64,000 nt of DNA from Candidatus Aenigmatarchaeota archaeon (GTDB taxonomy: Archaea > Aenigmatarchaeota > Aenigmatarchaeia > QMZS01): NCBI GenBank assembly GCA_023134135.1, contig JAGLVB010000003.1, forward strand, positions 98,218-162,217. The letters run 5' to 3'. The translations under genes and the position numbers were made by a program. Under the pieces are notes generated by a model. That model did not search any database, was not told where the DNA came from, and saw only the letters and a list, made by a program, of their open reading frames with translations. Shown one piece after another: positions 10,129 to 64,000 of the stretch (positions within the stretch are counted from its first letter, which is position 1; each line of letters begins with the position of its first letter).

Positions 10129-10584
10129 TCACCTCAACAACAACTCAACCTCAGCAGGCTTGTATTTCCACTTCTCAGGCAACAAATGCTCTTTCATGTA
10201 GTATTTTCCAAGTCTCCTGATTTTGGATTCTGTTAACTGCAATGACCTTTTGTTGTGATTATCTTTTTTATTATCAACCAGATGTTTTCTCAAGTGTATT
10301 GCTTTTTTAAACAAATTCATCAAATCCTCAGGATAATCCTCTTTAATATCATTTTCCTCAAGAATTGTCTGCAATTTCTTTCCTGTTGACAATTTAATTG
10401 AAGGCACTCCATAACTATCCCTTAAAATTAGCCCAATTTCAGGCTTTTTATGATCATCTTTCCTCAACTCAATAACTTTGGCAATAATCTCCTTTTTGCC
10501 CATTTCCTGCCATTCAGGGACCTTGTTTCTGACAACTTTGTCTGAACCGCTTTTCCCTTTTCTTCTAGCATACATTCGCGCCAT
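10129..10584 (-). CDS. rps15: 30S ribosomal protein uS15 (archaeal S15 / eukaryotic S13 type)
   Basis: MARMYARRKGKSGS... N-terminus and ...RRLGKYY...KWKYKP... C-terminus. The likely start is the ATG at 10584, not the track start at 10620. Confidence 0.9.
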   Translation of the reverse strand: MARMYARRKGKSGSDKVVRNKVPEWQEMGKKEIIAKVIELRKDDHKKPEIGLILRDSYGVPSIKLSTGKKLQTILEENDIKEDYPEDLMNLFKKAIHLRKHLVDNKKDNHNKRSLQLTESKIRRLGKYYMKEHLLPEKWKYKPAEVELLLR

Positions 10585-10646
10585 AAGAATACATAAAAAT
10601 AAATAATATTGAATACTCACTCTAAAAGATAGTTTCTTAGAATATT

Positions 10647-12902: not shown

Positions 12903-12911
12903 TTAAATCCC

Positions 12912-13568
12912 TCACCAATGATATTTCTTCAACTCTTTCTCAAGTTCCCGATAATTAGGAAGTATTTTTTCAACCCCAAGTTTAAAATCTTTTGAATGAT
13001 TGAAATGTTTTAGATGAACCAATTCATGAGCCACAACATAATCAATAAGCGGGATTGGAAGACAGATTAATTTGGAATTAAAGAAAATCCTTCCATCTCT
13101 TTTACAGTGCCCAAAGCTTCTTAGGTTTTTTATTGAAACTGATTTTGGATACAATCCAAAAATACTGGAAAATTCTTCGGCTTTGACCGAGACATATTCA
13201 AGGGTTTCATCTGCGAGAAATTCAAGCAGAATATTCTCGGTTTTTCTTTTCCCAAATTTATATATTTCAATTGAATTATCAAATATTTTTATGCCTGAAT
13301 TTTTATCCCTTACTATATTCACACCATATTTTTCTCCTTTGTAATAAACCGAATCCTCTTCAAAAAGTTTCACTGATTTCCCAAGTTCCCCAACTTTTCT
13401 TTTAAGCCAGTTTTGCTTCTCTTTCAAAATAGTTTCTGCAGATACACTGTTATTCTCGGGCAGGGTAATCTCAAGGCAGTAATTTGGGTTTAATTTAAGG
13501 TATGCGTGTCGGGTTTTTTTATATTTTATTTTGCAGTTTACCTCTTTATTTCCTATTTTCAGGAGCAT
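12912..13568 (-). CDS. DUF45/YgjP-like (M48-related) zinc metallohydrolase
   Basis: C-terminal HELVHLKHFNHSKDF contains an HExxH motif in the usual DUF45 context. Confidence 0.65.
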   Translation of the reverse strand: MLLKIGNKEVNCKIKYKKTRHAYLKLNPNYCLEITLPENNSVSAETILKEKQNWLKRKVGELGKSVKLFEEDSVYYKGEKYGVNIVRDKNSGIKIFDNSIEIYKFGKRKTENILLEFLADETLEYVSVKAEEFSSIFGLYPKSVSIKNLRSFGHCKRDGRIFFNSKLICLPIPLIDYVVAHELVHLKHFNHSKDFKLGVEKILPNYRELEKELKKYHW

Positions 13569-13592
13569 AATATTGTTAATTTTAAGGCACTA

Positions 13593-13805
13593 TTAGTCAG
13601 TATTGGGCTCTGTAACTTCATATTTTTTAATTATCATTTCTTCCAATTCTTCAGGATTATCATCTAAATACTTTTTGTGTTCTTCACACCAGGTATATCC
13701 ATATCTCATATATTCTGCAGGTTCTCCGCATAAGATGCAGTTATATGAGTTCCCATTCTTAATTCTGAATTCTTCATAGAACCCCCCACTTTCTTCATCA
13801 TCCAT
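13593..13805 (-). CDS. Small acidic Cys/His-cluster protein (hypothetical)
   Basis: 70 aa with CILCGEPAEY...WCEEH. Confidence 0.4.
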   Translation of the reverse strand: MDDEESGGFYEEFRIKNGNSYNCILCGEPAEYMRYGYTWCEEHKKYLDDNPEELEEMIIKKYEVTEPNTD

Positions 13806-13916
13806 AAATATGAAATTATGATTTTAAGTAATCCCTAATTTTAGGGAAATTTTCGCAGAATGTATTTTTATTAATAAAAGTATAAATAGTTTTAAATACT
13901 ATTATATTGTGGTGAA

Positions 13917-14435
13917 ATGATTGAAAAGACTTTATATGGTGTACCTGTTATTTCAGAAGAATTAATGGGAAAAAATGATATTATTGAGAATGACCGATAT
14001 ACTGATGCTTATTTAGAACAGATTAACGAATTATATCATTTAGATAATATTTTAGGTTCACGAAAAAGCGGAATTGCTAATGGTGAATGGGCTGATTTAG
14101 ATTATTTTACGAGGAGTTCTCCGCTTAGAAATTCAGAAGGTGAAGATATCCTTAATGCGATTTTATATCATAGCGCAAATGCAGGTCTTTGGCAGCCTAA
14201 AATAATTGATGTAGATAAATTAACAGATCCACGCATAAAAACAGCAGAAGAATATTTAGAGCAGGTAAAAACAATAAGTCCTGATTATGGAAGAGGTATG
14301 ATATCTAAAGGTAACATATACGGCATTAGCGTCGCTAAAAAAGGCGGGTTTGTTGAATTAAATTCTTTAGATAATAAAGTAATTGTTCTCCCAACACAGT
14401 CATTTGTTGAATATTGTATTTCAAGGAACGAGTGA
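13917..14435 (+). CDS. Hypothetical protein
   Basis: 172-aa ORF with an ATG start. No family recognised. Confidence 0.4.
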   Translation: MIEKTLYGVPVISEELMGKNDIIENDRYTDAYLEQINELYHLDNILGSRKSGIANGEWADLDYFTRSSPLRNSEGEDILNAILYHSANAGLWQPKIIDVDKLTDPRIKTAEEYLEQVKTISPDYGRGMISKGNIYGISVAKKGGFVELNSLDNKVIVLPTQSFVEYCISRNE

Positions 14436-14562
14436 TTTGTAAATATAACCTACAATTTAATCAAAGAATTCTCTGTAGCTTTACTATGAGATTAGAGAAT
14501 CATTTCTTTAAAATCGTAAATATATTGTTGAATTCCAAAAATAGTTTAATTTATTAAATATT

Positions 14563-15996
14563 ATGCAGGAGATAATGATTGGTCTGGAAGTCCATGTGCA
14601 ATTAAACACAGAAACTAAACTATTCTGTCCCTGTTCAACTAAGCAGGCAGAGCCAAATGAGAATGTATGCGGTGTATGCCTCGGATTTCCCGGAACAAAG
14701 CCAGTATTAAACGAGAAAGCAATAGAATTAGCATTAAAAATTGCGTATGCTTTGGAATTGGAAATTAACAAGGAATTTATGTTTTCAAGGAAGACTTATT
14801 TTTACCCGGATTTGGCAAAGAATTTCCAGATAACCCAATATGAAATCCCTGTTGCCCAGAACGGTAAGTTAAAAGTCGGGGACAGGGAGATAAGGATTAG
14901 AAGAGTTCATCTTGAGGAAGATCCCGCAAGAATAGTGAGAAAAGATGATTGCGCTTTAATGGATTATAATCGAAGCGGAATTCCATTAGTGGAAATTGTC
15001 ACAGAACCTGATTTGAAAAGCCCGAGAGAAGCAAGATTATTTGTGCAAAAACTCCAGCAGATTTTGCAGTTTATTTATGTATCTGATTTGGATAAAGAGG
15101 GAAACATGAGGATTGACGCAAATATTTCCACAATCAGGTACGAAGAAAAATATGATTACAAGGGTGGATTAAAAACAGAAAAAAAATATGGAGAAAGAGT
15201 TGAGATAAAAAATGTTTCCGGCGCAAAGGAAGTTGAGAAAGCTTTAGGCTATGAAGCCTTAAGACAGAAAAATACCCCCGAAGTAAAAATGGAAACAAGG
15301 CTGTGGAATGAGAAAACAAAAACAACAAGCAGCGCGAGAGAAAAAGAAGGAGAGGCGGATTATGGTTATATTTTTGAGCCTGATTTGCCAAAGTTCGAAC
15401 TTTCAGATGAATTATTAAAAAAGATACAATCAAAATTGCCTGAGTTGCCGGGGAAGAAAAAACACAGGTTTTTGAAGTATGGTTTGTCTGAGGAACTTAT
15501 AGATACTTTGTTGACAGAACCGGAATTGACTCATTATTTTGAGTATATGTGCGAGACTCATAATGAAAAAGCTTCTGCGGTGTTGCTTGCAAAATATTTG
15601 AAGAAGACTTTGAATTACCACAACCTTAAACTAAAAGATGTCCCTGTGGATGTCAGGAAATTAAGAAGAATTCTGGATTTGTTGCAACAATATTTGATTA
15701 GCGATGAAATTGCAGAGATTCTTGTCAGGGAGATGGTTAAGGATTATATAGAGGGAAAAAGGGTAAGAAATCCTGAAAAGATTCTGATTGATTTGAATTA
15801 TGAAAAACCTTTGGAAGATGAACAACTGGCAAGAATCGTGAGAATTGTTGTGAGAGAACACAAGAGAGCAGTGAAAGATTATCTTGATGGGGAATTAAAA
15901 TCAATGGATTATTTAATCGGGCAGGTGATGAGAAAAACAAGAAGGGGAGCTGATGTAAAAAAAATCAGAGAATTGTTGAAGAGAGAATTTGATTGA
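14563..15996 (+). CDS. gatB: Asp/Glu-tRNA amidotransferase subunit B
   Basis: IGLEVHVQLNTETKLFCPCS N-terminus, a GatB-sized protein (477 aa), and a C-terminal YqeY-like tail (DYLIGQVMRKTRRGADVKKIRELL). Confidence 0.85.
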   Translation: MQEIMIGLEVHVQLNTETKLFCPCSTKQAEPNENVCGVCLGFPGTKPVLNEKAIELALKIAYALELEINKEFMFSRKTYFYPDLAKNFQITQYEIPVAQNGKLKVGDREIRIRRVHLEEDPARIVRKDDCALMDYNRSGIPLVEIVTEPDLKSPREARLFVQKLQQILQFIYVSDLDKEGNMRIDANISTIRYEEKYDYKGGLKTEKKYGERVEIKNVSGAKEVEKALGYEALRQKNTPEVKMETRLWNEKTKTTSSAREKEGEADYGYIFEPDLPKFELSDELLKKIQSKLPELPGKKKHRFLKYGLSEELIDTLLTEPELTHYFEYMCETHNEKASAVLLAKYLKKTLNYHNLKLKDVPVDVRKLRRILDLLQQYLISDEIAEILVREMVKDYIEGKRVRNPEKILIDLNYEKPLEDEQLARIVRIVVREHKRAVKDYLDGELKSMDYLIGQVMRKTRRGADVKKIRELLKREFD

Positions 15997-37156: not shown

Positions 37157-37219
37157 AAGAGATAATGTTTTAAAATATTAGTCAATTATTTGTATTAATA
37201 TATATCCGTATATTTAGTT

Positions 37220-37780
37220 ATGGCATATGATTGTGGATTTATAGCAAGTCCGAGCGTATGCAGAATATTATACGAATTCGCGTTTCCATGGATATTCTGT
37301 TTCGCAATATTTTTCGGTTTGCTATTAAGAGCAAAGATATTCGGAGTGGACGAAAACGGAGCAGCAACAAGGACAGCGAGAGGAGTAGCAGGAATAATCG
37401 GTCTTGTGGCAGGATTTTTAATAGTAATGTCATTTGGACCAGCAATGGGAGCTTTCATATCAGGAATCACAGGAACAACTGTGATGTACTTGACAGTAAT
37501 AATGGGTTTGATATTAATAATTACAATAGTAAAACCTGACTGGATAATTGGCACTGGAGAAGAAAAAGATGGCAAAAAAGATACAGGATTTAGTGGATGG
37601 CGAGCATGGGCATTAATAATAGGTCTTGTAATATTAGCCTGGCTAATTATCAATGGATATGTTGGTGGAATAAACTGGTTCTATTTTGGATTTACACAGG
37701 ATTTAATTGCTTTGATAATAATTTTCATAGTAATTGGAGCAATAATGTGGTTCATCAATTCCACTGAGAAAAACGAATAA
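37220..37780 (+). CDS. Polytopic membrane protein, tandem paralog 1
   Basis: MAYDCGFIASPSVCRILYEFAFPWIFCFAIFFGLLLRAKIFG... with several TM segments. Confidence 0.55.
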   Translation: MAYDCGFIASPSVCRILYEFAFPWIFCFAIFFGLLLRAKIFGVDENGAATRTARGVAGIIGLVAGFLIVMSFGPAMGAFISGITGTTVMYLTVIMGLILIITIVKPDWIIGTGEEKDGKKDTGFSGWRAWALIIGLVILAWLIINGYVGGINWFYFGFTQDLIALIIIFIVIGAIMWFINSTEKNE

Positions 37781-37874
37781 TTTATTTTTTTATTATAATT
37801 TTTTTAGTAAAGTGGTCTTGCTGAGGATTAAAAAGAGATTATGGGATGTTATAAATACTAAAACTATTTAAATT

Positions 37875-38420
37875 ATGGTATATGATTGTGGATTTATAGC
37901 AAGTCCGAGCGTATGCAGAATATTATACGAATTCGCGTTTCCATGGATATTCTGTTTCGCAATATTTTTCGGTTTGCTATTAAGAGCAAAGATATTCGGA
38001 CCAAGTGAAGATAAAACAGCAAGAGGTGTTTCAGGGATAATAGGGCTGGTAGCAGGATTTTTAATAGTGATGGCATATGGATCAACAATGGGAGCTTTTT
38101 TGGCAGGAATCACAGCAGGAACTGTAATGTATTTAACCGTAATAATGGGTTTAATCTTAGTAATTACAATAGTAAAGCCTGAATGGATAGAAAAATTTGA
38201 AGGAAAGTCTGCATGGGCATTAATAATAGGTCTTGTAGTAATCACATGGATGATTATCAACGGAGTTGTAGGCGGAATGAACTGGTTCTATTTTGGACTC
38301 ACGCAGGACTTAATTGCTTTGATAATAATCTTCATAGTGATTGGAGCGATGATGTGGTTCATTAACAATACTGAAACTAAACCCACCCCACCAGCAGGAA
38401 AAAAACAAGGTGAAGTCTAA
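37875..38420 (+). CDS. Polytopic membrane protein, tandem paralog 2
   Basis: MVYDCGFIASPSVCRILYEFAFPW... A 121-nt tract is identical to paralog 1 (37225-37345 = 37880-38000). Confidence 0.55.
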   Translation: MVYDCGFIASPSVCRILYEFAFPWIFCFAIFFGLLLRAKIFGPSEDKTARGVSGIIGLVAGFLIVMAYGSTMGAFLAGITAGTVMYLTVIMGLILVITIVKPEWIEKFEGKSAWALIIGLVVITWMIINGVVGGMNWFYFGLTQDLIALIIIFIVIGAMMWFINNTETKPTPPAGKKQGEV

Positions 38421-53195: not shown

Positions 53196-53630
53196 TCACA
53201 TATACTTGGAGTATACATATCTGATAATATCGTTCATGGGTTTTTTGTTCCATTTCTTTACTGTTCCATTTATGACTTTCGAATCTGCTTCAAAATTATT
53301 CTTATTATCTTTCACGAACTTTTCCCCTTTTTTTGTTAATTGAAACAGGAATCTTTTGCCTGAGAATTCATTGTCTGTTGCAAACTCTTCTTTCTCAATG
53401 GTTAGGAATCCTTCTTTCTCCAGAGCATCTATATCTTTTGTAAGTTCAAAAGAGTAAGGACCATAATTGTATTTTATGAACTCAAATTCTTTGCTCAGTT
53501 TGTTTTCTTTTTGCGCGAGGAACATCATCTTCTGAAACTTGGTTTTCCCCTCAATCTTTTTCGCGTGTTTTAAAAACAGGAGAATCTGAGCAAGACCTTT
53601 TTTATTTCTGGCATTAGAAAGAGTTTCCAT
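53196..53630 (-). CDS. SocA/Panacea (DUF4065) or YwgA-like domain protein
   Basis: GKTKFQKMMFLAQKE...FIKYNYGPYSFELTKDIDALEKEGFL parallels the KLQKLLY...W-x-GP...Y pattern of DUF4065/YwgA. Confidence 0.5.
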   Translation of the reverse strand: METLSNARNKKGLAQILLFLKHAKKIEGKTKFQKMMFLAQKENKLSKEFEFIKYNYGPYSFELTKDIDALEKEGFLTIEKEEFATDNEFSGKRFLFQLTKKGEKFVKDNKNNFEADSKVINGTVKKWNKKPMNDIIRYVYSKYM

Positions 53631-54666: not shown

Positions 54667-55071
54667 ATGGTAAATCATAGAGAGACTTTGGATAAACCCA
54701 TTCCCAGTTTAGAAGATATGATTGAATTTGCTTTTCTATTGCTTCTGCCGGTTTCTCTGGTAATTTCATGGATTGTTGATTTTAGCGCAGTGTTGATATG
54801 TTTTTTTCTGATTGCTTCTTCATTAGGTTTGCTCTTTTTTGCTTGTGTTGTTGTGGATTCAGAATACAATAAAGAGAAATATAGAATGGAATATTCTCTT
54901 TCAAATGGCATTTTTACATTCCTGACCCTTGTACTGGTAATCCCTTCAATAGTAATTACTTATCTGTTAAAAACTGAATTTCTTTTCCTACCAGTGTATG
55001 CTATTTTGTTAATTGGATTTTTTGGATTTCTTTGTAATAGGTGGATTAAGGGATTGGCGAATATTGGTTGA
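54667..55071 (+). CDS. Hypothetical four-TM membrane protein
   Basis: 134-aa ORF. An attC-like element starts 8 nt after its stop. Confidence 0.45.
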   Translation: MVNHRETLDKPIPSLEDMIEFAFLLLLPVSLVISWIVDFSAVLICFFLIASSLGLLFFACVVVDSEYNKEKYRMEYSLSNGIFTFLTLVLVIPSIVITYLLKTEFLFLPVYAILLIGFFGFLCNRWIKGLANIG

Positions 55072-55078
55072 TTGTGGG

Positions 55079-55161
55079 ATTTAACATATGCAGATATGCG
55101 AAGTTTGCGAAGCAAATTTGGATGGAGCCTGTAAGGCGGAGTCTCTTAATCGCTGTTATGT
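55079..55161. repeat. attC-like element 1 (ATTTAAC ... GTTATGT); left half of sub-family 2, right half of sub-family 1
   Basis: ATTTAAC-ATATGCAGATATGCGAAG-[TTTGC GAA GCAAA]-TTTGGATGGAG-[CCT GTA AGG]-CGGAGTCTCTTAATCGCT-GTTATGT. Confidence 0.6.
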
Positions 55162-55252
55162 CTGGGTGAGCGAAGCGAAAGTCTGCAAGACGTCCCCAAG
55201 AATTTTCGTAGAAAATTCGCAGTGTTTCTTCGGGTGCCGTTAATCACTAATA

Positions 55253-55260
55253 TTTATATA
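55253..55260 (+). promoter_or_regulatory. TATA-box-like TTTATATA, ending 22 nt upstream of the ATG at 55283
   Basis: The sequence and spacing fit an archaeal promoter with a short or absent leader. AT-rich background lowers specificity. Confidence 0.3.
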
Positions 55261-55282
55261 ATACAAAATAGTTAACTAAATT

Positions 55283-55927
55283 ATGAGTAATGATAAGGAA
55301 ATGTTTGAAAAAATATATGAAAAAGTAGCAGTCTGGACAGAATCCGAGCCACCTAAAGAATTGGTAAATTTAATTGAAAGTGGAAAAATTAAACCATGCA
55401 AAGTTCTTGATGTTGGATGTGGTGAAGGATTCTATGCTATTTATTTGGCTTCAAAAGGTTTTGATGTAACAGGAATAGATATATCAGAAAATGCTATAAA
55501 ACTTGCAAAAGGAAATGCGGTGAAACAAAGTGTAAAAATAAAATTTATGCCTTTTGATGTAGATGATTTAGATAAAATAAATGATAAATTTGATTTTGTA
55601 TTTGAATGGGCAATTTTGCATCATATAATGTCCGAACAAAGACAAAAATATGTAAAGAATATTAAAAGGATTTTGAATGTAGAAGGAAAATATTTATCAA
55701 TCTGTTTTAATAATCAAAATCCTGATTTCGGAGCGAAGGGCAAGAATTTAAGAATAATTCCAGAAGGTGCAAAAATGCCTGTAGGAACAAGATTATATTA
55801 TTCATCTTTTGAAGAGATGAAACAGTTATTTGAACCGCATTTTCGTGTAATTGAAGCCAAATTGATTACCATGACTGCGGGTAAAAAAGAACATATTGGT
55901 AACTATTTCTTTATGGAAAAGATGTAA
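55283..55927 (+). CDS. Class I SAM-dependent methyltransferase (small-molecule type)
   Basis: VLDVGCGEGFYAIYLASKGFDVTGIDIS (motif I and post-I); 214 aa. Confidence 0.75.
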   Translation: MSNDKEMFEKIYEKVAVWTESEPPKELVNLIESGKIKPCKVLDVGCGEGFYAIYLASKGFDVTGIDISENAIKLAKGNAVKQSVKIKFMPFDVDDLDKINDKFDFVFEWAILHHIMSEQRQKYVKNIKRILNVEGKYLSICFNNQNPDFGAKGKNLRIIPEGAKMPVGTRLYYSSFEEMKQLFEPHFRVIEAKLITMTAGKKEHIGNYFFMEKM

Positions 55928-55946
55928 AGGCACCAGAGGAAATTAA

Positions 55947-56036
55947 ACATAACATCGGGATTTAGAGAAGTCGGGCGTAGCCCGATTTGGATGGAGAAAT
56001 CTGCAAGACTTCGGAATCTCTTAATCGCTGTTATAT
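55947..56036. repeat. attC-like element 2 (ACATAAC ... GTTATAT)
   Basis: ACATAAC-ATCGGGATTTAGAGAAG-[TCGGGC GTA GCCCGA]-TTTGGATGGAG-[AAATCT GCA AGACTT]-CGGAATCTCTTAATCGCT-GTTATAT. The outer arms GATTTAGAGA/TCTCTTAATC pair at 9 of 10 positions. Confidence 0.65.
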
Positions 56037-56161
56037 TTTCCCGTCAGGGATTGATTTTTAGTGCAACGACGCTGAAAGCAAAAAATCAAAGTCGTATTTA
56101 AGTTTCCCAATAGAAGCGAGGTTTTTCCGAGTGTAACCTCAAAAGCTCTCTCATTGCCAAT

Positions 56162-57025
56162 CTAATCTGCATCAACGGGTACAGTAGATTTATCTTTTCT
56201 TAATAATAATCCCGCAACAAGAATTAAAGTTCCTCCAATAATCATGTTTAATGTGATTACTTCTTTGAAGAAGACAACACTAAAGATTAATGCTGCTGGA
56301 ACTTCCCAATATGTGAATAATGAATAATGGCTCATTTTTAATTTTTTCAACGCAAAAAAGAATAATAAGAATGCAATTATACCAACTAAAAATCCATATA
56401 ATGATGCAACACCTGTTTGAGTAATTGTTGGTATTGGTTTATTGATAAAAATGAATGGTAAAAAAACAATTGCACCTACAAGATTTTGATAAAATATTGT
56501 TTCTGTCTTGGTGTATTTTTTTAATCCTTTTTTGAAGATAACTACTGTAATTGAAAAAATTATTGCGGAAAGTAGCATGGCTGCCATTCCAATAAAGTCT
56601 TTATTTCCAAAACTAATTTCTTTATTCATATACATGACAGTAATTCCTAAAAAAGCCATACCAATAAGTAATGCAGTTCTTTTTGATACTTTTTCTTTCA
56701 AAAAAATTGCACCGAAGATTGAAGCAAAAATTGGCCATGTAAATAGAATTATTACTGCATTACCAATTGAGGTGTATAGATATGCAACGAAATAAAGAAA
56801 CATCATGGCAGCATTTAATCCAGAAGCAATTAACATGATTTTGTAATTTCCCTGAAATAATTTTATCTTCTTCCATTCAAAATAACCTAATAAAATTATT
56901 ACAGGAATGAACACTCTAAAGAATGTGATTGAAGTTGATGGGAGATTGAGGAGTTTAATAAAAACGCCACTTGATCCACTAATTGTTGCGGCAAAGATTA
57001 TTGCGAGATAAGGATTCAGCTTCAT
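56162..57025 (-). CDS. EamA/DMT-superfamily transporter
   Basis: 287 aa, about 10 TM helices, with the two-EamA-repeat architecture. Confidence 0.7.
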   Translation of the reverse strand: MKLNPYLAIIFAATISGSSGVFIKLLNLPSTSITFFRVFIPVIILLGYFEWKKIKLFQGNYKIMLIASGLNAAMMFLYFVAYLYTSIGNAVIILFTWPIFASIFGAIFLKEKVSKRTALLIGMAFLGITVMYMNKEISFGNKDFIGMAAMLLSAIIFSITVVIFKKGLKKYTKTETIFYQNLVGAIVFLPFIFINKPIPTITQTGVASLYGFLVGIIAFLLFFFALKKLKMSHYSLFTYWEVPAALIFSVVFFKEVITLNMIIGGTLILVAGLLLRKDKSTVPVDAD

Positions 57026-57106
57026 AATGATTACAATTGCGGGATTATTATATATAGTTTTCTAGTAGCCAGTATAAAGAGAGAGCCGTTCAGAAACTTA
57101 AATACG

Positions 57107-57211
57107 ATTGCACATTGCTATTAAAAGAAGTTCGGTTTTGAGGCAACCCACAAAACCGAATTTGGATGGAGAAGTCTGCAAGACTTCGGAACTTCTTAAT
57201 CGCTGTTAGTT
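57107..57211. repeat. attC-like element 3 (left box degenerate: ATTGCAC ... GTTAGTT)
   Basis: ATTGCA-CATTGCTATTAAAAGAAG-[TTCGGTTTTG AGGCAACCCA CAAAACCGAA]-TTTGGATGGAG-[AAGTCT GCA AGACTT]-CGGAACTTCTTAATCGCT-GTTAGTT. Compared with AATTGCAACTAACAT of elements 4 and 5, the ACTAA of the left box is missing. Confidence 0.55.
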
Positions 57212-57344
57212 GCGTCGGAGTGAAACGAGGACCAAGGGTTAGTGCAACGGTCGGCGAAGCCGAAACCCGAAGAGTTATTTTCAAGGGCGTTCTATTAAAT
57301 GAGCGAATGCGATACATTAAGAACAAGAATTAAAAGGCGAATTT

Positions 57345-57908
57345 TTATTCCAATTTCATATAAGAATATTTTCCTAAAGTAAATTTATTATCAGTAATTA
57401 ATTGTTCAACTTGTTGTTTATGATTTTCATATGAATTTTGAATTATTAAATCAATACATACTAATGGATTTTCATTTTCAGATTCAACAGTTCTAACAAA
57501 AATATTTGAAGCATTAGTTGGTTCTCCTATTTGATAAGCTAAATCTTTGATTTGTTCTAATTGATATGGTGGTTTTATTCTAATTCCAATATAATTACCC
57601 TTCAAGTCACCCTTTTTAACTATTTCAAGTGCATCTTCGGACTCAATAGATACATCACATCCTCTTAATTTTTCTTCAAGGTCAACCTGCTTTCTAAAAA
57701 GATTAACAATATCTTTTGAAGAATATTTATCATCAACATTTCCATCAATAAAAACACCAGATTCTAAAATATTTTTATTATATCGAAATAATGATCTGAA
57801 AAATCCTAATTCAACATTATCTAAATGAAAATTCGTAAAACTACTATTTACCTCATCAAAAGTTTTCCCTTCAAAATAAACAAATCCTCTAATTTTTTGC
57901 ATAATCAT
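57345..57908 (-). CDS. Hypothetical protein
   Basis: 187-aa ORF. No family recognised. Confidence 0.4.
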   Translation of the reverse strand: MIMQKIRGFVYFEGKTFDEVNSSFTNFHLDNVELGFFRSLFRYNKNILESGVFIDGNVDDKYSSKDIVNLFRKQVDLEEKLRGCDVSIESEDALEIVKKGDLKGNYIGIRIKPPYQLEQIKDLAYQIGEPTNASNIFVRTVESENENPLVCIDLIIQNSYENHKQQVEQLITDNKFTLGKYSYMKLE

Positions 57909-57984
57909 ATATAATTAATAGATTAATATAAAACTTTCGAAAAAATTCGCCTTCTTTACTTTTTTAGTCCTTGAAAATAATTGC

Positions 57985-58083
57985 AACTAACATATGCAGA
58001 TATGCGAAGTTTTTGCGAGTATCAATTGTTCCAAAGCAAAAATTTGGACGGAGCGAAGCGGAGTCGTATATTTGCTGTTATGT
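57985..58083. repeat. attC-like element 4 (AACTAAC ... GTTATGT), sub-family 2
   Basis: AACTAAC-ATATGCAGATATGCGAAG-[TTTTTGC ...19 nt... GCAAAAA]-TTTGGACGGAG-[C GAA G]-CGGAGTCGTATATTTGCT-GTTATGT. The arms GCAGATATGCGA/TCGTATATTTGC pair with two G:T positions. Confidence 0.6.
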
Positions 58084-58140
58084 TCTCATCCAAAGGATGA
58101 CGAGGAGCGAAGCGACGAAGAGTAAAATTTCCATTTCCTG

Positions 58141-58190
58141 ATATATTCTGCGAAGCAGACAATATGTCCGCAGGACGGGGGGAGTTCTTT
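58141..58190. repeat. 50-bp module copy A (ATATATTCTGCGAAGCAGAC..TGTCCGCAGGACGGGGGGAGTTCTTT)
   Basis: Differs at 3 positions from 63333-63382. Contains the CTGC-GAA-GCAG and GTCC-GCA-GGAC mini-hairpins. Confidence 0.85.
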
Positions 58191-58207
58191 TTATGAGATT
58201 AATAAGA

Positions 58208-58432
58208 TCAAAATATTACTTCTTTAAGAATATCTGCATGAAATCCACCGTTGGATAGAAAATAAGGCGGGTCTGCAAAAATCATATTAACTGAATTTGC
58301 AGGTAGTGAATTAAGAACCTTTAGACAGTCGTCATGGAATAACTGTATGTTTTCTGAGTTGAAGTATGGTTTAACCATATATCTATTTGTTTGGAATTGG
58401 TTAATAAAAAGTTTGTTGTTTAATCTCGGCAA
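58208..58432 (-). pseudogene. Truncated beta-class N6A/N4C DNA methyltransferase (N-terminal ~70 aa only)
   Basis: ...IQLFHDDCLKVLNSLPANSVNMIFADPPYFLSNGGF, then 10 unrelated codons and a stop. The TRD and SAM-binding motifs expected downstream are absent. The truncation abuts the repeat module at 58141-58197. Confidence 0.7.
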
Positions 58433-58437
58433 AACAA

Positions 58438-59508
58438 TTATTTACCAATTATTATAACTTCTCGATATCCTTTTCCATTATTTCTATTAAGTTTATATGA
58501 ATATGGTATGGATTTTGTTATCACTGTTTTTTTGTATTTTTTCATTAATTTGACAATTGTTTGTATAGTTGGCTTTCCTTTATTTCCGTAAGATACAACT
58601 ATTGTGGAATCGGAGAATTTACGAAAAAGATTATCAAAATTACTTATTAAATTACAATCCCATGTATTTTTTTTGAAAATGAATGGTTTATTTACTCTTG
58701 AATTATCAATATTATGTTCCCATGTATTGTAATTCATAATACCTTCTAAAAAATGATACATCTCTGCATAGTTTTGAGGATGACAAGAATCTTTCCTACA
58801 ATAAGGCGGATCAAAATATACTAGATCAAATTTATCATTGATATTGAATATGTCTGTATTAAGTACCATATTGTTTTTTCCATTGTCAAAAACAAACTTT
58901 GAATATTCTTTATTGAATTTAATAAAATGATCCTTGAATGGTTTATCCCATGTTTTTTTATTGCCAAAACTTCTCTTAACATTGCTCGTTCTAAGATTCA
59001 AATTTTTTCTATGAAATAGATTAAATGGTCTTTTTGAAAGACAAGATTGAAACAAATTGTGATATGCTAACGCTTTTTTGTATCTTAGTGTTTTACCGTT
59101 ATATAACAAAGACAAATCTTCAATATTTTTTATCATTTTATCTAATAAGATATTTTCTTCATCAAGAAAATAAATACCATTATACATTTTACTTATTAGT
59201 TTTGGATATGATTCTGTTTTTCTTTCATTAAAAATAAATTCGATGTCTTTCACATTAAGTTTTACATTTTTATTCTCAATTAAAGCTATTCCCGTCTGAC
59301 TATTTGATTTAAGTATATCATTAAATGAGACTTCTTTACCCATACTTTTAAAAAGAAAACCAATACTACCTGAACCCCCAAAAGCATCTAAAACAGTTTC
59401 AAATTCAAGAGTTACAAGGATATTTTTTAACCAAGACACCATTCTTCTTTTGCTTCCTTGATATCTTGTTGAAGGAGCATCAAATCTTTCATTATCTTTT
59501 TTCTTCAT
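58438..59508 (-). CDS. D12-class N6-adenine DNA methyltransferase
   Basis: STRYQGSKRR, LDAFGGSGS (SAM loop) and VYFDPPYC (motif IV); 356 aa. Confidence 0.8.
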   Translation of the reverse strand: MKKKDNERFDAPSTRYQGSKRRMVSWLKNILVTLEFETVLDAFGGSGSIGFLFKSMGKEVSFNDILKSNSQTGIALIENKNVKLNVKDIEFIFNERKTESYPKLISKMYNGIYFLDEENILLDKMIKNIEDLSLLYNGKTLRYKKALAYHNLFQSCLSKRPFNLFHRKNLNLRTSNVKRSFGNKKTWDKPFKDHFIKFNKEYSKFVFDNGKNNMVLNTDIFNINDKFDLVYFDPPYCRKDSCHPQNYAEMYHFLEGIMNYNTWEHNIDNSRVNKPFIFKKNTWDCNLISNFDNLFRKFSDSTIVVSYGNKGKPTIQTIVKLMKKYKKTVITKSIPYSYKLNRNNGKGYREVIIIGK

Positions 59509-59509
59509 A

Positions 59510-60292
59510 TTAAATTACACTTTGTATTTTTTGAATATAATCTAGGTCAACAATTGCTTTATTTAAGATAGAATCTTGCTCCGAAGATGTCATCTTTTTG
59601 AAAATATCAGGAAAAGCTAAAATTAATGATATCATAATATAACACTGCAAATCATTACAGTTTTTTATCCATTCCTGAAATTTCGCTTCATCATACTTTG
59701 GAGAATAACGACCTGTCGAAGTTTGGAAATGATCCGCACTAGTATGAATGGATTTTGAAAGTTGAGCATATAATCTTTTTAATAGATCTCCTGTTTTCCT
59801 TCCTGAGTAAATTTTTTTATTGGCATTACATTGCTGATCAAATGTGTCTATTTTACTAAGTTGTTTAAAATAAGTGAAGTCAGAACCCCAAACATATTTT
59901 TGTTTTACATTGATATACCATTCATTGTCGTTAAGCCACCAGTCATATTCTATTTTGTGGTCGATAAAGTAGATCATTCTTAGAGCGGATTCCATTTGAG
60001 ATCGTAAACACATATTGGCATATTTATAGAGTCCCAATAACGCAAAATGCAATCCATTTATTCCATCAGCGAAAATTTCAGGCATTATTTTTTCAGCAAT
60101 TTTATCTCCATGAAATTTGTTTTTCCATTTTCCATATAAATTCAGTATTTCTAATACTTTCTCTATGTTATTGTCTTGATCTATTATAGACTTTTCCCAA
60201 TTTTGTTTTCTCCATATCTTTTGTGCATTATGCACAGTTTTTATCAATGTAGGTAAATTGTTGATTTGAAATCTAACCATTATTATCACCAT
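59510..60292 (-). CDS. Unknown helical protein with HEPN-like Rx6H motif
   Basis: LRSQMESALRMIYFIDH contains RMIYFIDH, which fits the Rx4-6H spacing. Also LSKSIHTS. No family recognised. Its start (60292 or 60280) overlaps the upstream gene. Confidence 0.4.
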   Translation of the reverse strand: MVIIMVRFQINNLPTLIKTVHNAQKIWRKQNWEKSIIDQDNNIEKVLEILNLYGKWKNKFHGDKIAEKIMPEIFADGINGLHFALLGLYKYANMCLRSQMESALRMIYFIDHKIEYDWWLNDNEWYINVKQKYVWGSDFTYFKQLSKIDTFDQQCNANKKIYSGRKTGDLLKRLYAQLSKSIHTSADHFQTSTGRYSPKYDEAKFQEWIKNCNDLQCYIMISLILAFPDIFKKMTSSEQDSILNKAIVDLDYIQKIQSVI

Positions 60293-61016
60293 TTATAAAG
60301 AAAGAAACAGAACAAAGTGAGTTATTGCTATCAATTGTTAAAATATGGTCTTCAATCTCCGCATTTACATTATACTTTTGAGCAAGTTGCTGAAAAAATT
60401 CTTTTAAAGTTAAGATTTTATCTGCAATAGAATTAATATTATTACTCTTGGATAAATTTAAACCATGCCATGATGATACCAGGAATTGATCTGAGTTATT
60501 CTTTATTGTTGTTGTATTGACAGCCGTTTGTTCTAAGAGTGTTGTATACATGACTATAAAACTACTGTTTCCGAATCTTTTTTGCTCACTAAAAATTTTT
60601 TCAATACTTTTAAGTTCTTTTTCTATTCGTCCATTTAATATTTCAATTTCTTGTGAAGAAAAATCAATGTTTAAAATGTGAAACGGGAGACGATCAAAGA
60701 TTTTATGTTGACCACAATTTAAGATAGTCTCTTCAAATTCAATTTCATCAATTACTTCGTTTACTTTTCCTTCAGCATCTAAACTTAAAGCCTCAATTGA
60801 ATTTTTACACCAAGCAAGTATATGGATTTTTGAAGAAATACATTCTTCATTAAGAATTCTTATTTCATCCATGTTTCTAGAGTTGGTTAAAGTTAAAACC
60901 TTTAAGTTCTTGTTTTTTATTTTTCTCGGATTTATTACATGACCTATATCTTTGAATTTATTTTTCCAGAAATTATTGGCAATGTCGGTTTTTAACCGTA
61001 ATATAGTTTCTTCCAT
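60273..61016 (-). CDS. Unknown protein (faint Rossmann/MTase-like motif order without a Gly-rich loop)
   Basis: LKVLTLTNSRNMDEIRIL ... LPFHILNIDFSSQ loosely recalls the motif I/IV positions of Trm1/TcmP-like folds. This is very tentative. Confidence 0.3.
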   Translation of the reverse strand: MEETILRLKTDIANNFWKNKFKDIGHVINPRKIKNKNLKVLTLTNSRNMDEIRILNEECISSKIHILAWCKNSIEALSLDAEGKVNEVIDEIEFEETILNCGQHKIFDRLPFHILNIDFSSQEIEILNGRIEKELKSIEKIFSEQKRFGNSSFIVMYTTLLEQTAVNTTTIKNNSDQFLVSSWHGLNLSKSNNINSIADKILTLKEFFQQLAQKYNVNAEIEDHILTIDSNNSLCSVSFFINGDNNG

Positions 61017-61025
61017 GATATTTAC

Positions 61026-62711
61026 CTAGAACATCTTTTCGAATAATCTGTATATTTTTTGCATTGCAGAAATAGATATTTTTTCTTCTTTTGCAATGAA
61101 TTGAAAACCAATCACAAATTCCATAATAATCGTATTGTCCAAGGCAATATTGAAAATTGGATGGTTTTTATTGAATACAACTGTTTTTTTCTGTATATCT
61201 AATTTACAGATAGGATCAATTTTCGTTGTTATATTCCATTGATCATATTTAACAGAAAATTCTTTGTTATTGACTCTGATTTTTTCAAAAAGTGATGGAT
61301 GTTCCTCATGAATAATTACTTTTTTTTGTTCTTTGTCTATTTCTATGGGATTCTCATCTATATTTCTTATTGACCTTTTTTTCTCAATAGTGAATCCTTT
61401 TTTGCTTGCTATATCGCTAATTTTCTTTGAGAGGGTTACTATTTCTTTCTTATCTTTCCTTACTATCGGTGCTTTCGGGATTCTTAAATTAGTTTTATCA
61501 AATTTAATGATTCCTACTGATTTTAAATCTTGAATGATTTTTTCTTGATTTGGTAGTTTTTCTAACGTTTCATATATTGCTTTATCTTCTTTTGCAGTGT
61601 TTTGAAACTCATGATCCCATTTTGTTAATTTGTCTCTAAAGAACTCATATATTTTTGATACTTCTTCAGTATAATAGAAACCATCCCTATCAAGCATTAA
61701 ATCATTATTTAATCCTTCAACAATATGAATTTCTCCCGTAAAATAATTTAATTTACCTAACATACGACCTTTCAATTTGATAACATCAAAATCTGTAGGT
61801 AAACCTATTCCTACATCGTTTAATCTAATTTGAAATCCTCTTGCTTCCTGTGGTCTGATAGAAGTAAAAGGAGACAAAATTGTGTATTTCAATATAATGT
61901 TTCCAAACTTTTGTTCTCCTTTTTCTATTATTTCTGATCTTTTATTATTGGCTCCTTCAGGCACATTCCTAAATAATTCTTCTCCGTCAAACCACACTCT
62001 TAAAGGAATCCTATTTTTTAGATAGAAAAAATCTTTTAATTCTTTATAAGATTCAGGGAATTGTAACGGTAAATATTGTGATAGCTCCCATTTCGTCTTT
62101 TCAAGCCAACCAAATCGTTCAATTGAACCACAACCCTCTTTTTCATATTCTTTCATTTGTGTAATTGTGCGATCTTCTATATTTTCAAGAAGTACAATTG
62201 TTTCTCCTTGTTTTTTTGGCAATAAGCTCGGACATATTTTATAATCTATATTTTCAATATTGTTATTTAACACCCAAGAATTATCTTGATAATATTCACT
62301 TACTTTAATAATTACTTCAATAGCATTTTCTTCTCCTGCTTTTTTACTTACAATTCGAATTGTTTTACAATAGGGAAATACCGCCAAGAAACCAACTCCA
62401 AACTGCCCTATTCTTTTTCTACCCAAACCAATTGAAGCACCTGTCCGGGGGGTGGTTTTACCAATTGTTAAAAGTTTATTTTCAATATCTATTTTATCCA
62501 TCCCTTTTCCATTATCTTTAATAATGAGTTTCTTCGATTTGAAATCTAAATTTATCTTTATCTCTGTAGCTTCAGCATCATAAGCGTTAGAAACAAGTTC
62601 TTTTATTGCTCGCGAAAAATTCTTATAAAGACCAATACTTAAATGACTCACTACTTTTGAATCCACTTTTATAGAAAGTTTGCCTTTTTCAATGATTTTT
62701 TGATTAATCAT
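61026..62711 (-). CDS. GHKL-superfamily (MORC/MutL-like, HATPase_c_3) ATPase
   Basis: N box ELVSNAYDAEATEIKI, G1 box IKDNGKGM and G2 box GQFGVGF. A long C-terminal region may hold an S5-like transducer. The likely start is ATG 62711 (the track uses GTG 62720). Confidence 0.8.
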   Translation of the reverse strand: MINQKIIEKGKLSIKVDSKVVSHLSIGLYKNFSRAIKELVSNAYDAEATEIKINLDFKSKKLIIKDNGKGMDKIDIENKLLTIGKTTPRTGASIGLGRKRIGQFGVGFLAVFPYCKTIRIVSKKAGEENAIEVIIKVSEYYQDNSWVLNNNIENIDYKICPSLLPKKQGETIVLLENIEDRTITQMKEYEKEGCGSIERFGWLEKTKWELSQYLPLQFPESYKELKDFFYLKNRIPLRVWFDGEELFRNVPEGANNKRSEIIEKGEQKFGNIILKYTILSPFTSIRPQEARGFQIRLNDVGIGLPTDFDVIKLKGRMLGKLNYFTGEIHIVEGLNNDLMLDRDGFYYTEEVSKIYEFFRDKLTKWDHEFQNTAKEDKAIYETLEKLPNQEKIIQDLKSVGIIKFDKTNLRIPKAPIVRKDKKEIVTLSKKISDIASKKGFTIEKKRSIRNIDENPIEIDKEQKKVIIHEEHPSLFEKIRVNNKEFSVKYDQWNITTKIDPICKLDIQKKTVVFNKNHPIFNIALDNTIIMEFVIGFQFIAKEEKISISAMQKIYRLFEKMF

Positions 62712-62847
62712 TTTGCTCACCCTTTAATTGTTCTTCCATCATAATTTCAAATTGTCTTGATATAAGCCACCCTTTTCTTTTACAATAACTTCTATAGTCA
62801 TTATACAACTTGGTTTTAACTCTTAAAGTTATATTTTTTGATTCCAT
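62704..62847 (-). CDS. Ribbon-helix-helix (CopG/Arc-like) DNA-binding protein, 47 aa
   Basis: Hand-translated: MESKNITLRVKTKLYNDYRSYCKRKGWLISRQFEIMMEEQLKGEQND*. It has a beta-strand (ITLRV) followed by two helices. Its stop overlaps the ATPase start (ATGATTAA). Below the track cutoff. Confidence 0.6.
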   Translation of the reverse strand: MESKNITLRVKTKLYNDYRSYCKRKGWLISRQFEIMMEEQLKGEQND

Positions 62848-62866
62848 AATTATCACCATAATTCAA

Positions 62867-62887
62867 ATATACACAAATGTATATAAA
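62867..62887 (-). promoter_or_regulatory. TATA-like box (TTTATATA, 62880-62887 on minus) overlapped by the perfect palindrome ATATACA-caaa-TGTATAT (62867-62884)
   Basis: Read directly. The box ends 32 nt upstream of the RHH ATG (62847). The palindrome is a candidate RHH operator. Confidence 0.4.
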
Positions 62888-62976
62888 TATTGCTATTTTA
62901 GAGTTTTTATCTATAGACATATCCTTTTCAAAGAAAAAGACGATTTGTCCGTAGGAACTCCCTTAATAATATAGAA

Positions 62977-63019
62977 AAATTTGGGAGAGCGAAAGCGAAC
63001 CTCTTAACCTTGGTTATAT
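62977..63019. repeat. attC-like half-site (right half only, ends GTTATAT)
   Basis: AAATTTGGGAGAG-[C GAAA G]-CGAACCTCTTAACCTTG-GTTATAT parallels the right halves of elements 1-5. No matching left arm was seen. Confidence 0.45.
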
Positions 63020-63149
63020 AAAGTGCGAAGCATTTCCTTGTTGTTTCGGGTGGTCGGTTAAGAGAAGTTTTTCTATCGAGCGAAGCGAGACAATCTGTGC
63101 GTAGCACTGGAATTCCCCCTTTTTTTTAGGAAAACTTAAACACAATTGC

Positions 63150-63244
63150 AACTAACATCGGGCATTAAGAGAAGTTTTTTGCGTAGCAAAAAATTTGGGT
63201 GGAGAAGTCTGCAAGACTTCGTAACCTCTTAATGTTTGTTATGT
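63150..63244. repeat. attC-like element 5 (AACTAAC ... GTTATGT)
   Basis: AACTAAC-ATCGGGCATTAAGAGAAG-[TTTTTTGC GTA GCAAAAAA]-TTTGGGTGGAG-[AAGTCT GCA AGACTT]-CGTAACCTCTTAATGTTT-GTTATGT. The outer arms CATTAAGAG/CTCTTAATG pair perfectly. Confidence 0.65.
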
Positions 63245-63332
63245 CTGTCGGAGCGAAGCGGAGACCAAGGGATAGCCGCAGGCGGTTTTTGCGAAGCAAA
63301 AAATCCCGCAGAGTTAAGTTTAAGTTTTCCGT

Positions 63333-63382
63333 ATATATTCTGCGAAGCAGACTATCTGTCCGTAGGACGGGGGGAGTTCTTT
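63333..63382. repeat. 50-bp module copy B
   Basis: ATATATTCTGCGAAGCAGACTATCTGTCCGTAGGACGGGGGGAGTTCTTT. See copy A. Confidence 0.85.
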
Positions 63383-63470
63383 ACACCAAAGCCGAAGGCT
63401 CATATTACTTAAATTATGGGAGTTCTTGGTTAAAAATAGGACAATTTATAAATATTTAAGTAGTTTTAAT

Positions 63471-64000
63471 ATGACTATGGAAGGAAACATAGAATTGTAT
63501 AAAGAACTTTTAGGGTTTTGTGAAGAAATTAGAGAAAAACAAAAGTTTAAATTTGATTCTAACCTGAATTTTTCCAATTTTAATGAAAAATGTTATATTG
63601 AGATGTATTTAAAGAATAAAGTGTCAACTAGACCTCTAGTGTTTAAAAAAGGCTCACTTCCCGAGTTAAAGGATGTTTGTTCTAAGTGTGCAATGTTTCA
63701 TACTTCAAAAAGGAATGAGATGATTAAAGGTTTCGATATACAATTTGGTCATTGGTTTGAAAAAGCATTTAGAGATTTTTTGTTAAATAAAGGTATCAAA
63801 ACGGAGAAAAAAGGATTTCCTTTTCCAGATATTGAAGTTATTAAGAACGGTGTTCCCGTTGCATATTTTGAACTAAAGTATATTAGATCTCCTTTTGTTT
63901 ATGCCAATAACCAACTAAAGATGGAGAGATGGTGTTATGAATGCTCGCTGACTTTGGATGTTGGAGATAAATTATCTAAGCAAAGAACGAAGATAGAAGA
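63471..64000 (+). CDS. PD-(D/E)xK restriction-endonuclease-like protein, 3' end outside window
   Basis: ATG at 63471; I saw no stop before the window end. ...KKGFPFPDIEVIKNGVPVAYFELKYI... is a classical PD-x(n)-ExK arrangement. Not in the ORF track because the frame is open-ended. Confidence 0.5.
   Translation, partial: MTMEGNIELYKELLGFCEEIREKQKFKFDSNLNFSNFNEKCYIEMYLKNKVSTRPLVFKKGSLPELKDVCSKCAMFHTSKRNEMIKGFDIQFGHWFEKAFRDFLLNKGIKTEKKGFPFPDIEVIKNGVPVAYFELKYIRSPFVYANNQLKMERWCYECSLTLDVGDKLSKQRTKIE

Follow-up and report, generated by a model that had tools for sequence, protein, structure and literature searches.

At positions 58208-62847 of a 64,000-nt stretch of Candidatus Aenigmatarchaeota archaeon DNA (contig JAGLVB010000003.1; the whole stretch is referred to here as the window), six genes lie closely packed on the minus strand, and four of them, encoding a GHKL ATPase, two proteins termed here unk1 and unk2, and a DNA methylase, form a conserved unit. 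In our judgment, the block is probably a methylation-coupled, ATP-dependent restriction-like defense module. Hidden Markov models made from our own alignments and run on all of the compared loci (labeled with L-numbers, while P-numbers label homologous proteins) found the genes for the ATPase, unk1, and unk2, hereafter the trio, adjacent and in identical order in every one of ~40 loci, with intergenic gaps of -32 to +18 nt everywhere except in L010 (88 nt). A DNA methylase, usually a D12 enzyme, adjoins the trio wherever the contig reaches far enough. An earlier note on this DNA had proposed an undescribed defense system, and this stands for the component set, which is restriction-modification (R-M)-like and is not described in the literature that we searched, but not for the general theme. 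GHKL ATPases of the MORC/paraMORC type in R-M operons, which the note cited as a prediction from 2008, have indeed been known since then (Iyer, Abhiman and Aravind 2008, PMC2292703), and the novelty therefore lies in the component set rather than in the theme.

The conservation of the core is broad. Close homologs of unk2 are restricted to DPANN-type contigs, where the neighborhoods all read ATPase, a protein of ~245 aa, a protein of ~260 aa, and then a D12 methylase, and a distant clade found via the unk1 profile has the same gene set, with a third gene that is clearly homologous to unk2. The genome scan placed the module in an Aenigmatarchaeota metagenome-assembled genome (MAG), in Bathyarchaeota, Methanoperedens, and Nitrososphaerota, and in MAGs labeled Pseudomonadota and Dehalococcoidia, and a metagenome scan yielded 29 further contigs. 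The prospect raised in the earlier note that the gene order might be conserved nowhere else does not hold, because the trio is kept in all loci, and the methylase in all whose contig extends far enough, and these loci come from different phyla and have unrelated flanks. What did not carry over intact is the extent of the unit, which had been given as five or six genes: the four-gene core recurs, but the small ribbon-helix-helix (RHH)-like gene upstream and the truncated methylase downstream are specific to a subclade.

Several features of these loci bear on the lifestyle of the module. Its taxonomic spread is patchy, taking in DPANN, other archaea, and bacterial MAGs; the flanking genes are unlike between all loci; and its GC content is below that of the host locus in several cases (for example, 0.36 versus 0.49 in L017). 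From these three features, we infer that the module is horizontally mobile. The D12 methylase is inverted in L010, L018, L019, and L062, and an unrelated N6_N4 methylase sits at the D12 position in the Nitrososphaerota loci L020/21; such inversion and exchange is the modularity expected of separate restriction and modification units. Other R-M or defense genes are repeatedly found nearby, namely, an N6_N4 methylase and ResIII in L001 and L007, GmrSD and two methylases in L004, and additional methylases in L002. A helicase adjoins the module in 2 of the ~40 loci (L001 and L007), and a conserved six-gene operon including the upstream methylase and the ResIII helicase was considered for these two and rejected, as the helicases have no significant mutual similarity; they are not homologous, and their adjacency therefore reflects island clustering and not a larger operon. 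Separately, in L015, a MAG labeled Pseudomonadota, the module is followed (10284-14717, plus strand) by a gene whose 1477-aa product combines sacsin-type GHKL (SACS) and NOV_C domains, the second GHKL-type protein in that neighborhood.

In the window, all six minus-strand open reading frames (ORFs) described in the earlier note were found at the coordinates given there, together with every motif that it cited (ELVSNAYDAEA, DNGKGM, and GQFGVGF in the ATPase, RMIYFIDH in unk2, and RYQGSKRR, FGGSGS, and DPPY in the 356-aa methylase), and its account of the junctions was reproduced as well. The ORF of the small RHH-like gene (62704-62859, 51 aa; 47 aa from the homolog-based start MESKN at 62847) ends in a TAA stop within ATGATTAA at the ATG of the ATPase gene. 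The ATPase ORF occupies 61026-62720 (564 aa), and its homolog-based start (MINQK) is the ATG at 62711, giving a gene at 61026..62711 and a protein of 561 aa. A gap of 9 nt leads to unk1 (60273-61016, 247 aa), which overlaps unk2 by 8 nt, or by 20 nt with the upstream ATG of the latter. The unk2 ORF spans 59510-60292 (260 aa), with its homolog-based start at the fifth codon, at 60280 (59510..60280, 256 aa). The D12-class (Dam-type) N6-adenine DNA methylase (58438-59508, 356 aa) follows after 1 nt, and a truncated beta-class N6/N4 DNA methylase (58208-58432, 74 aa) follows after a further 5 nt. Together, this supports the co-oriented operon that had been claimed. The GC content of the window is about 30%, and because long ORFs are improbable in DNA of 29% GC and each gene has conserved homologs, the block is far beyond what chance would produce. 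P0001 and P0012, homologs that match exactly, carry the annotation of a Candidatus Aenigmarchaeota MAG. Rfam and tRNA scans of the whole window gave no match.

The first protein of the trio is predicted to be a paraMORC-like GHKL ATPase. Its GHKL domain belongs to PF13589 (HATPase_c_3; E = 3e-23 in Pfam), and the motifs ExxxN, DxGxG, and GxxGxG (Bergerat-fold motifs I-III) are invariant across 13 loci. The best NCBIfam match is to the BbrUII/HgiDII restriction enzymes (NF050001; E = 3e-27, 95.6 bits versus a cutoff of 550), which spans only model positions 2-171 of 659 and ends at residue 185 of the ATPase. The NCBIfam match to MzaB involves the GHKL part only (35.8 bits versus a cutoff of 850), the PADLOC matches to REase_II and TmtA are confined to the N-terminal GHKL part, and the protein scores barely above threshold for the sacsin N-terminal ATP-binding domain model. 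Solved structures (Hsp90/HtpG, from the PDB profile search) align to residues ~20-131 only. The ~200-aa region after the GHKL domain is well conserved, has no Pfam or PDB sequence match, and, by analogy with MutL and MORC, would be an S5 transducer. Plasmid relatives of the ATP-binding gene adjoin C5-cytosine methylases. In the module itself, the ATPase gene shares an operon with a DNA methylase gene, and neither a restriction nuclease nor a helicase of a known type accompanies them.

This absence raises the question of where DNA cleavage would reside, and the main rival to a trio with its effector in unk2 places a nuclease in the C-terminus of the ATPase, comparable to BbrUII/HgiDII, paraMORC3, and VcSduA, with unk1 and unk2 as specificity or regulatory subunits. 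In favor of this rival, the GHKL domain has its closest counterpart in the BbrUII/HgiDII enzymes, and fusions of a GHKL domain with a C-terminal nuclease are well documented (PMC2292703, PMC12137116). Some polar positions in the last 165 aa of the ATPase are also invariant (R413, E479, Y492, C505, N517, and H520). However, the BbrUII/HgiDII match stops well before this region, at residue 185, and searches with the C-termini of four diverse homologs found no PD-(D/E)xK, HNH, DUF4263, or other nuclease profile and no PDB match. Moreover, conservation along the protein is lowest in these ~165 aa, whereas a denser invariant cluster of catalytic type is found in unk2. We therefore consider a nuclease in the ATPase to be unlikely, and the two other rivals discussed below, a HEPN ribonuclease (RNase) and a repair or epigenetic function, to be less likely.

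For unk1, in which the earlier note had seen only a faint Rossmann-like motif order, structure prediction and a fold search bore out the Rossmann-like character and narrowed it to the class-I methyltransferase fold. The AlphaFold2 model, built from 11 sequences, is of high confidence (predicted local distance difference test [pLDDT] score of 91.2, predicted template modeling [pTM] score of 0.91) and has the canonical class-I order b1-aA...b6-b7. A Foldseek search of the PDB gave a best E of 5e-5 and probabilities of 0.98-1.0 over the top 50 matches, at a template modeling (TM) score of ~0.4 and 6-12% identity, and nearly all of these 50 are S-adenosylmethionine (SAM) methyltransferases or, like spermidine synthase, proteins of a closely related fold. 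At the sequence level, unk1 has a weak match to the PP_RS20740 family, which appears in the literature only as a "hypothetical protein" of a furfural-tolerance study, otherwise no significant match in Pfam, NCBIfam, or PADLOC, and no match in the PDB profile search. The loop after b1 reads LTNSRN in place of the glycine-rich motif I, and b2, which would normally end in an acidic residue, ends in AWC; because both of these features are missing, we file unk1 as a methyltransferase fold and not as an active methyltransferase. An invariant N116-x-D118-F119 closes strand b4 and has the spacing of motif IV (N/D-P-P-F/Y) of amino-methyltransferases, and S121, Q122, R130, E132, E134, E139, and Q145 are further invariant residues. 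The role proposed for unk1 is that of probing DNA bases or recognizing the target.

The third member of the trio, unk2, belongs to a family for which an exhaustive profile search returned 173 representative relatives, 113 of them full-length. The Pfam family DUF5677 (PF18928), which the literature mentions without a function, is matched by 29 of these 113. The window protein itself has no significant match to PF18928, and its close homologs reach E = 0.009-0.34; the link runs via P0065, which scores 31.5 bits against the DUF5677 cutoff of 27.1 and which the unk2 profile detects at 8.5e-12, so membership of unk2 in DUF5677 is transitive only. Conservation among the 113 full-length relatives centers on polar residues, with R97 and H183 kept in all of them, E72 and E101 in 108 each, Y175 in 107, D76 in 106, H112 in 97, and E115 in 95. 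With four carboxylates, two histidines, and one arginine, this set may form a site that depends on a metal. An RNase III-like reading of the E-x3-D in this set was entertained and set aside, since neither the second acidic motif nor the spacing agrees with it, and it came without a profile match. Two PDB profile matches, to Soc and to 2qgm, were judged spurious, and P0168, a longer relative considered as a possible clue from a domain fusion, carries no informative domain. PADLOC, run on the 113 relatives, returned no recurring model.

The 260-aa protein had been put forward in the earlier note as a HEPN-like candidate and possible RNase effector, based on an Rx6H motif (R105-x6-H112), and this part of the proposal found no support at the level of motifs or profiles. 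Under this second rival, unk2 would replace a DNA endonuclease and act in abortive infection by RNA cleavage, with the GHKL ATPase as its regulator and the methylase marking self. The idea has some appeal, as unk2 is predicted to be all-helical and has an absolutely conserved arginine and histidine, fusions of Ymh with paraMORC are known, R-M systems have links to no fewer than 16 HEPN clades (PMC3710099), and HEPN families are highly divergent and often missed by profiles. However, R105 is present in 23 of 30 close members and in only 39 of the 113 relatives overall, being replaced elsewhere by N, S, K, G, or L, and for this reason, the "Rx6H" is a local feature and not a family signature. 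The two absolutely conserved residues, R97 and H183, are separated by 86 residues, and neither of them is part of an Rx4-6H pattern. The conserved acidic residues E72, D76, E101, and E115 point toward a metal site, but HEPN RNases work without a metal (PMC3710099). Finally, among the 113 members, no HEPN family was matched in Pfam, NCBIfam, or PADLOC except for one Csx1/Csm6 match at E = 0.003 in one member, no solved HEPN structure was matched by unk2 in the PDB profile searches, even with thresholds relaxed to E <= 1-10, and the sole family link leads to DUF5677 instead. A HEPN RNase thus appears quite improbable.

Outside of the module, DUF5677-like proteins keep company with other ATPases. 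Distant relatives of unk2 occur in L025, L026, L030, L032, L034, L036, L037, L038, and L040, mostly at 6.4-8.6 kb, in the order of a ParA/MinD-like ATPase (AAA_31, ~285 aa), an unknown gene of ~175-198 aa, and a DUF5677-like gene of ~240 aa. This arrangement, found in Acidobacteriota, Verrucomicrobiota, Bradyrhizobium, and Neobacillus, may be another uncharacterized conflict module. Two Bacillota genomes (L024, 7899-10384; L035, 7836-10261) have a DUF5677-like gene directly followed by one for an ORC/CDC6-like AAA ATPase of ~590 aa. DUF5677-like proteins that lack the GHKL module thus adjoin ParA- or ORC/CDC6-like ATPases and therefore have recurrent NTPase partners, which would suit a role as effector or sensor.

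Of the two methylases in the block, the 356-aa protein is well supported as a D12 enzyme (PF02086, E = 1e-12, 48.7 bits versus a cutoff of 22; PADLOC MTase_II, E = 2e-47), and 12 loci keep its FGG of motif I and DPPY of motif IV without exception. The 74-aa ORF, which contains FADPPY, proved to be a truncated methylase, as it had been taken for, and corresponds to the N-terminus of a beta-class N6/N4 enzyme: it matches only the first ~45 positions of several methylase models and stops shortly past DPPY, beside a repeat module. The same gene begins after the D12 methylase in L009 and is 91% identical up to the contig end, and L002 has a full-length homolog (57% identical) 4 kb away. An ORF of this type lies next to the module only in the window and in L009, its closest relative, and is absent at the other loci; the truncated methylase is a subclade-specific remnant outside the core.

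These components can be assembled into a plausible mechanism. The D12 Dam-type methylase would mark host DNA at adenine, and the ATPase, unk1, and unk2, encoded as one invariable gene trio, would assemble as an ATP-dependent restriction complex. The paraMORC-like GHKL ATPase may serve as an ATP-driven dimerizing clamp or looping engine, and unk1, with its SAM loop lost and N-x-D-F at the motif IV position, might probe target adenines and signal the unmethylated state. A DUF5677-type helical protein with a Glu/Asp/Arg/Glu/His/Glu/His cluster, unk2 would be the effector, most likely a metal-dependent nuclease. In the DPANN subclade, the RHH-like protein would bind a palindrome over the TATA box and time expression in the manner of the C proteins of R-M systems. 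The specific division of labor between unk1 as reader and unk2 as effector is tentative, and we regard it as possible but doubtful. A bolder version, which we consider improbable, would make the trio a new ATP-dependent restriction class in which unk1, as a dead methyltransferase, flips adenines to sense missing N6-methylation, the GHKL clamp transduces this signal, and unk2 represents a new all-helical metal-dependent nuclease fold that is also the effector in the ParA- and ORC/CDC6-linked modules.

Several points weigh against the interpretation as a restriction-like module. The whole case consists of sequence comparison and predicted structure. Searches of Pfam, NCBIfam, PADLOC, and PDB profiles with the trio proteins found no nuclease domain, in line with the observation in the earlier note that no DNA endonuclease was recognizable. 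The AlphaFold2 model of unk2 (11 sequences) is all-helical and of low confidence (pLDDT 50.3), and its best Foldseek match is no better than E = 1.2; because the model is unreliable and the fold search was empty, the argument for a catalytic role of unk2 comes solely from its conserved polar residues. When candidates were tested for phage defense in Enterococcus, a DUF5677 gene was among the nine candidates and not among the five reported to be protective (PMC12632615). The module turned up on neither plasmids nor viral contigs: unk2 had no plasmid match, the ATPase was matched via its GHKL domain only, and unk1 was absent from viral contigs.

Comparison with known systems helps to define what is particular about the module. 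PADLOC v2, which covers BREX, DISARM, Mza, MADS, Shedu, and others, returned only the generic MTase_II, the N-terminal GHKL matches, and weak partial matches to mad2, which agrees with the assertion that the block matches none of the named systems, and papers on BREX diversity and archaeal immunity mention neither GHKL nor MORC. The closest precedent is provided by the MORC/paraMORC R-M operons, which share with the block an N-terminal GHKL domain with intact motifs, a conserved middle region, a methylase operon, and a sporadic, laterally mobile spread in bacteria and archaea. Those operons, however, typically hold superfamily II (SFII) helicases together with restriction-fold, HNH, or Vsr nucleases and mostly cytosine methylases (PMC2292703), whereas this one has no helicase or known nuclease, the fixed partners unk1 and unk2, and an adenine methylase. 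The BbrUII/HgiDII enzymes, for which the N-terminus of the ATPase scores best, show that such a GHKL domain can belong to a true methylase-paired restriction enzyme, but they are single polypeptides, and the match here is partial and N-terminal. The notion that the trio is a split BbrUII/HgiDII enzyme was rejected, as NF050001 is matched by neither unk1 nor unk2 nor the C-terminal part of the ATPase.

Fusions of paraMORC with Ymh (HEPN) occur in R-M neighborhoods (Anantharaman et al. 2013, PMC3710099) and, like the module, couple a GHKL ATPase to an all-helical putative effector in an R-M context; unk2 differs in being a separate gene with no detectable Ymh/HEPN similarity and no conserved Rx4-6H. 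VcSduA is a validated anti-phage GHKL-Shedu nuclease with a C-terminal DUF4263 PD-(D/E)xK domain and does not need a methylase (PMC12137116). In VcSduA and paraMORC3, the GHKL ATPase controls a nuclease, as is proposed here (PMC12137116), but the DUF4263 domain is undetectable in the trio. The mechanism proposed here is patterned on type III (and type I) R-M systems, which are multi-subunit and NTP-dependent, use a methyltransferase fold for target recognition, and identify self by adenine methylation. They differ from the module in having a superfamily 2 (SF2) helicase rather than a GHKL ATPase as motor; here, the methylase-fold partner is seemingly cofactor-defective and separate from the active methylase, and there is no PD-(D/E)xK. 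The wider unk2 family also overlaps with DUF5677 (PF18928), but this family has no known function.

The mark set by a Dam-type methylase provides strand discrimination in E. coli mismatch repair, which counts in favor of a third, non-defense rival. A methyl-directed repair or epigenetic/chromatin module built from a MutL-like ATPase and a Dam methylase would also accord with what GHKL ATPases of the MutL/MORC type do, namely, methyl-directed repair and the compaction of chromatin (PMC2292703), but it is very unlikely given the absence of a MutS or MutH partner, the patchy mobile spread, the low GC content, the exchange and inversion of the methylase, the nearby R-M genes and GmrSD, and the variable cassette region in which the block lies. 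Because of this mobility, methylase exchange, defense neighbors, and cassette setting, a selfish or defense element fits better than a housekeeping one. If the restriction-like reading is true, the block would be a compact four-gene restriction system that has a MutL/MORC-type GHKL motor and does without a known nuclease or helicase, and it would give DUF5677, with at least 173 representative clusters, its first function. It would also imply that a methyltransferase fold without a cofactor site has been reused as a sensor. The module concerns DPANN archaea, for which the reported defense repertoires are poor (PMC12988326), and it would serve as a prokaryotic model of the response of MORC-type ATPases to methylation marks on DNA, an issue that eukaryotic MORCs raise as well (PMC2292703).

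The small gene at the head of the operon had been described as a dedicated RHH regulator, a claim that applies within a limited range. Similar genes, 66-91% identical, are present in L002, L004, and L009, which marks them as a feature of the DPANN subclade, but the gene is absent from most other loci, where its position is taken by an HTH_3 gene (L016), by a CcdA-like RHH gene (L018; 22.9 bits versus a cutoff of 22.4), or by nothing. The window protein has the strand-helix-helix pattern, but it matches no RHH profile in Pfam or NCBIfam. Its upstream region contains a conserved element (62862..62897, minus strand) consisting of the TATA-like TTTATATA (62880-62887) and a 7-bp inverted repeat, ATATACA-N4-TGTATAT (62867-62884), that overlaps the TATA-like box; the element lies ~20-40 nt upstream of the RHH start. 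A non-coding stretch of ~34 nt before the small gene is common to the window, L009, and L002 (Woesearchaeota), even though the proteins there are only 60-66% identical. By analogy with C proteins, the element could combine a promoter and an operator, the two overlapping, through which the controller regulates its own expression. In L004 (1575-3352, minus strand), a 49-aa paralog with 42% identity heads a separate operon of two N6_N4 methylases, near GmrSD and the module. This paralog weakly matches NCBIfam PRK13702 (replication regulatory protein RepA; E = 2e-4) and PRK11675 (LexA regulated protein; E = 9e-3), both of which we take to be of the CopG/RHH type.

The block is flanked on either side by repeat modules, as had been noted. 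The one at low coordinates (57970..58190, within a composite at 57930-58205) contains the direct-repeat families D6 and D11, and the one at high coordinates (63135..63382, within a composite at 62925-63400) contains D3, D6, and D11 in the same orientation; their end segments, 63326-63382 and 58134-58190, are 91% identical. Further composite modules of ~200-300 nt each are found at 55030-55282, 55928-56161, and 57085-57345, and together, the modules part single genes and the six-gene block from one another, the single genes being those for a SAM methyltransferase (55283-55927), an EamA transporter (56162-57025), and an unknown protein (57345-57908). They have common start and end segments, many small hairpins, and GCGAAGC-type units (tgcgaagca, gagcgaagcg, gtccgtaggac), and they look like a cassette array. 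Beyond the high-coordinate module, an ORF of >176 aa (63471-64000, plus strand) runs off the window end; it contains the PD-(D/E)xK-like FPFPDIEV...AYFELKY, has no Pfam or NCBIfam match, and may encode a restriction endonuclease in the next cassette. Elsewhere in the window, a tandem duplication at 37213-38374, with a unit of ~640-655 nt and copies that are 83-98% identical, carries two paralogous ORFs of ~181-186 aa. Upstream of the cassette region, the gene at 53196-53630 (minus strand) encodes a 144-aa protein that weakly resembles the C-terminal region of the antitoxin DarG (E = 1e-6 in NCBIfam, with a score well short of the cutoff) and may be toxin-antitoxin-related.

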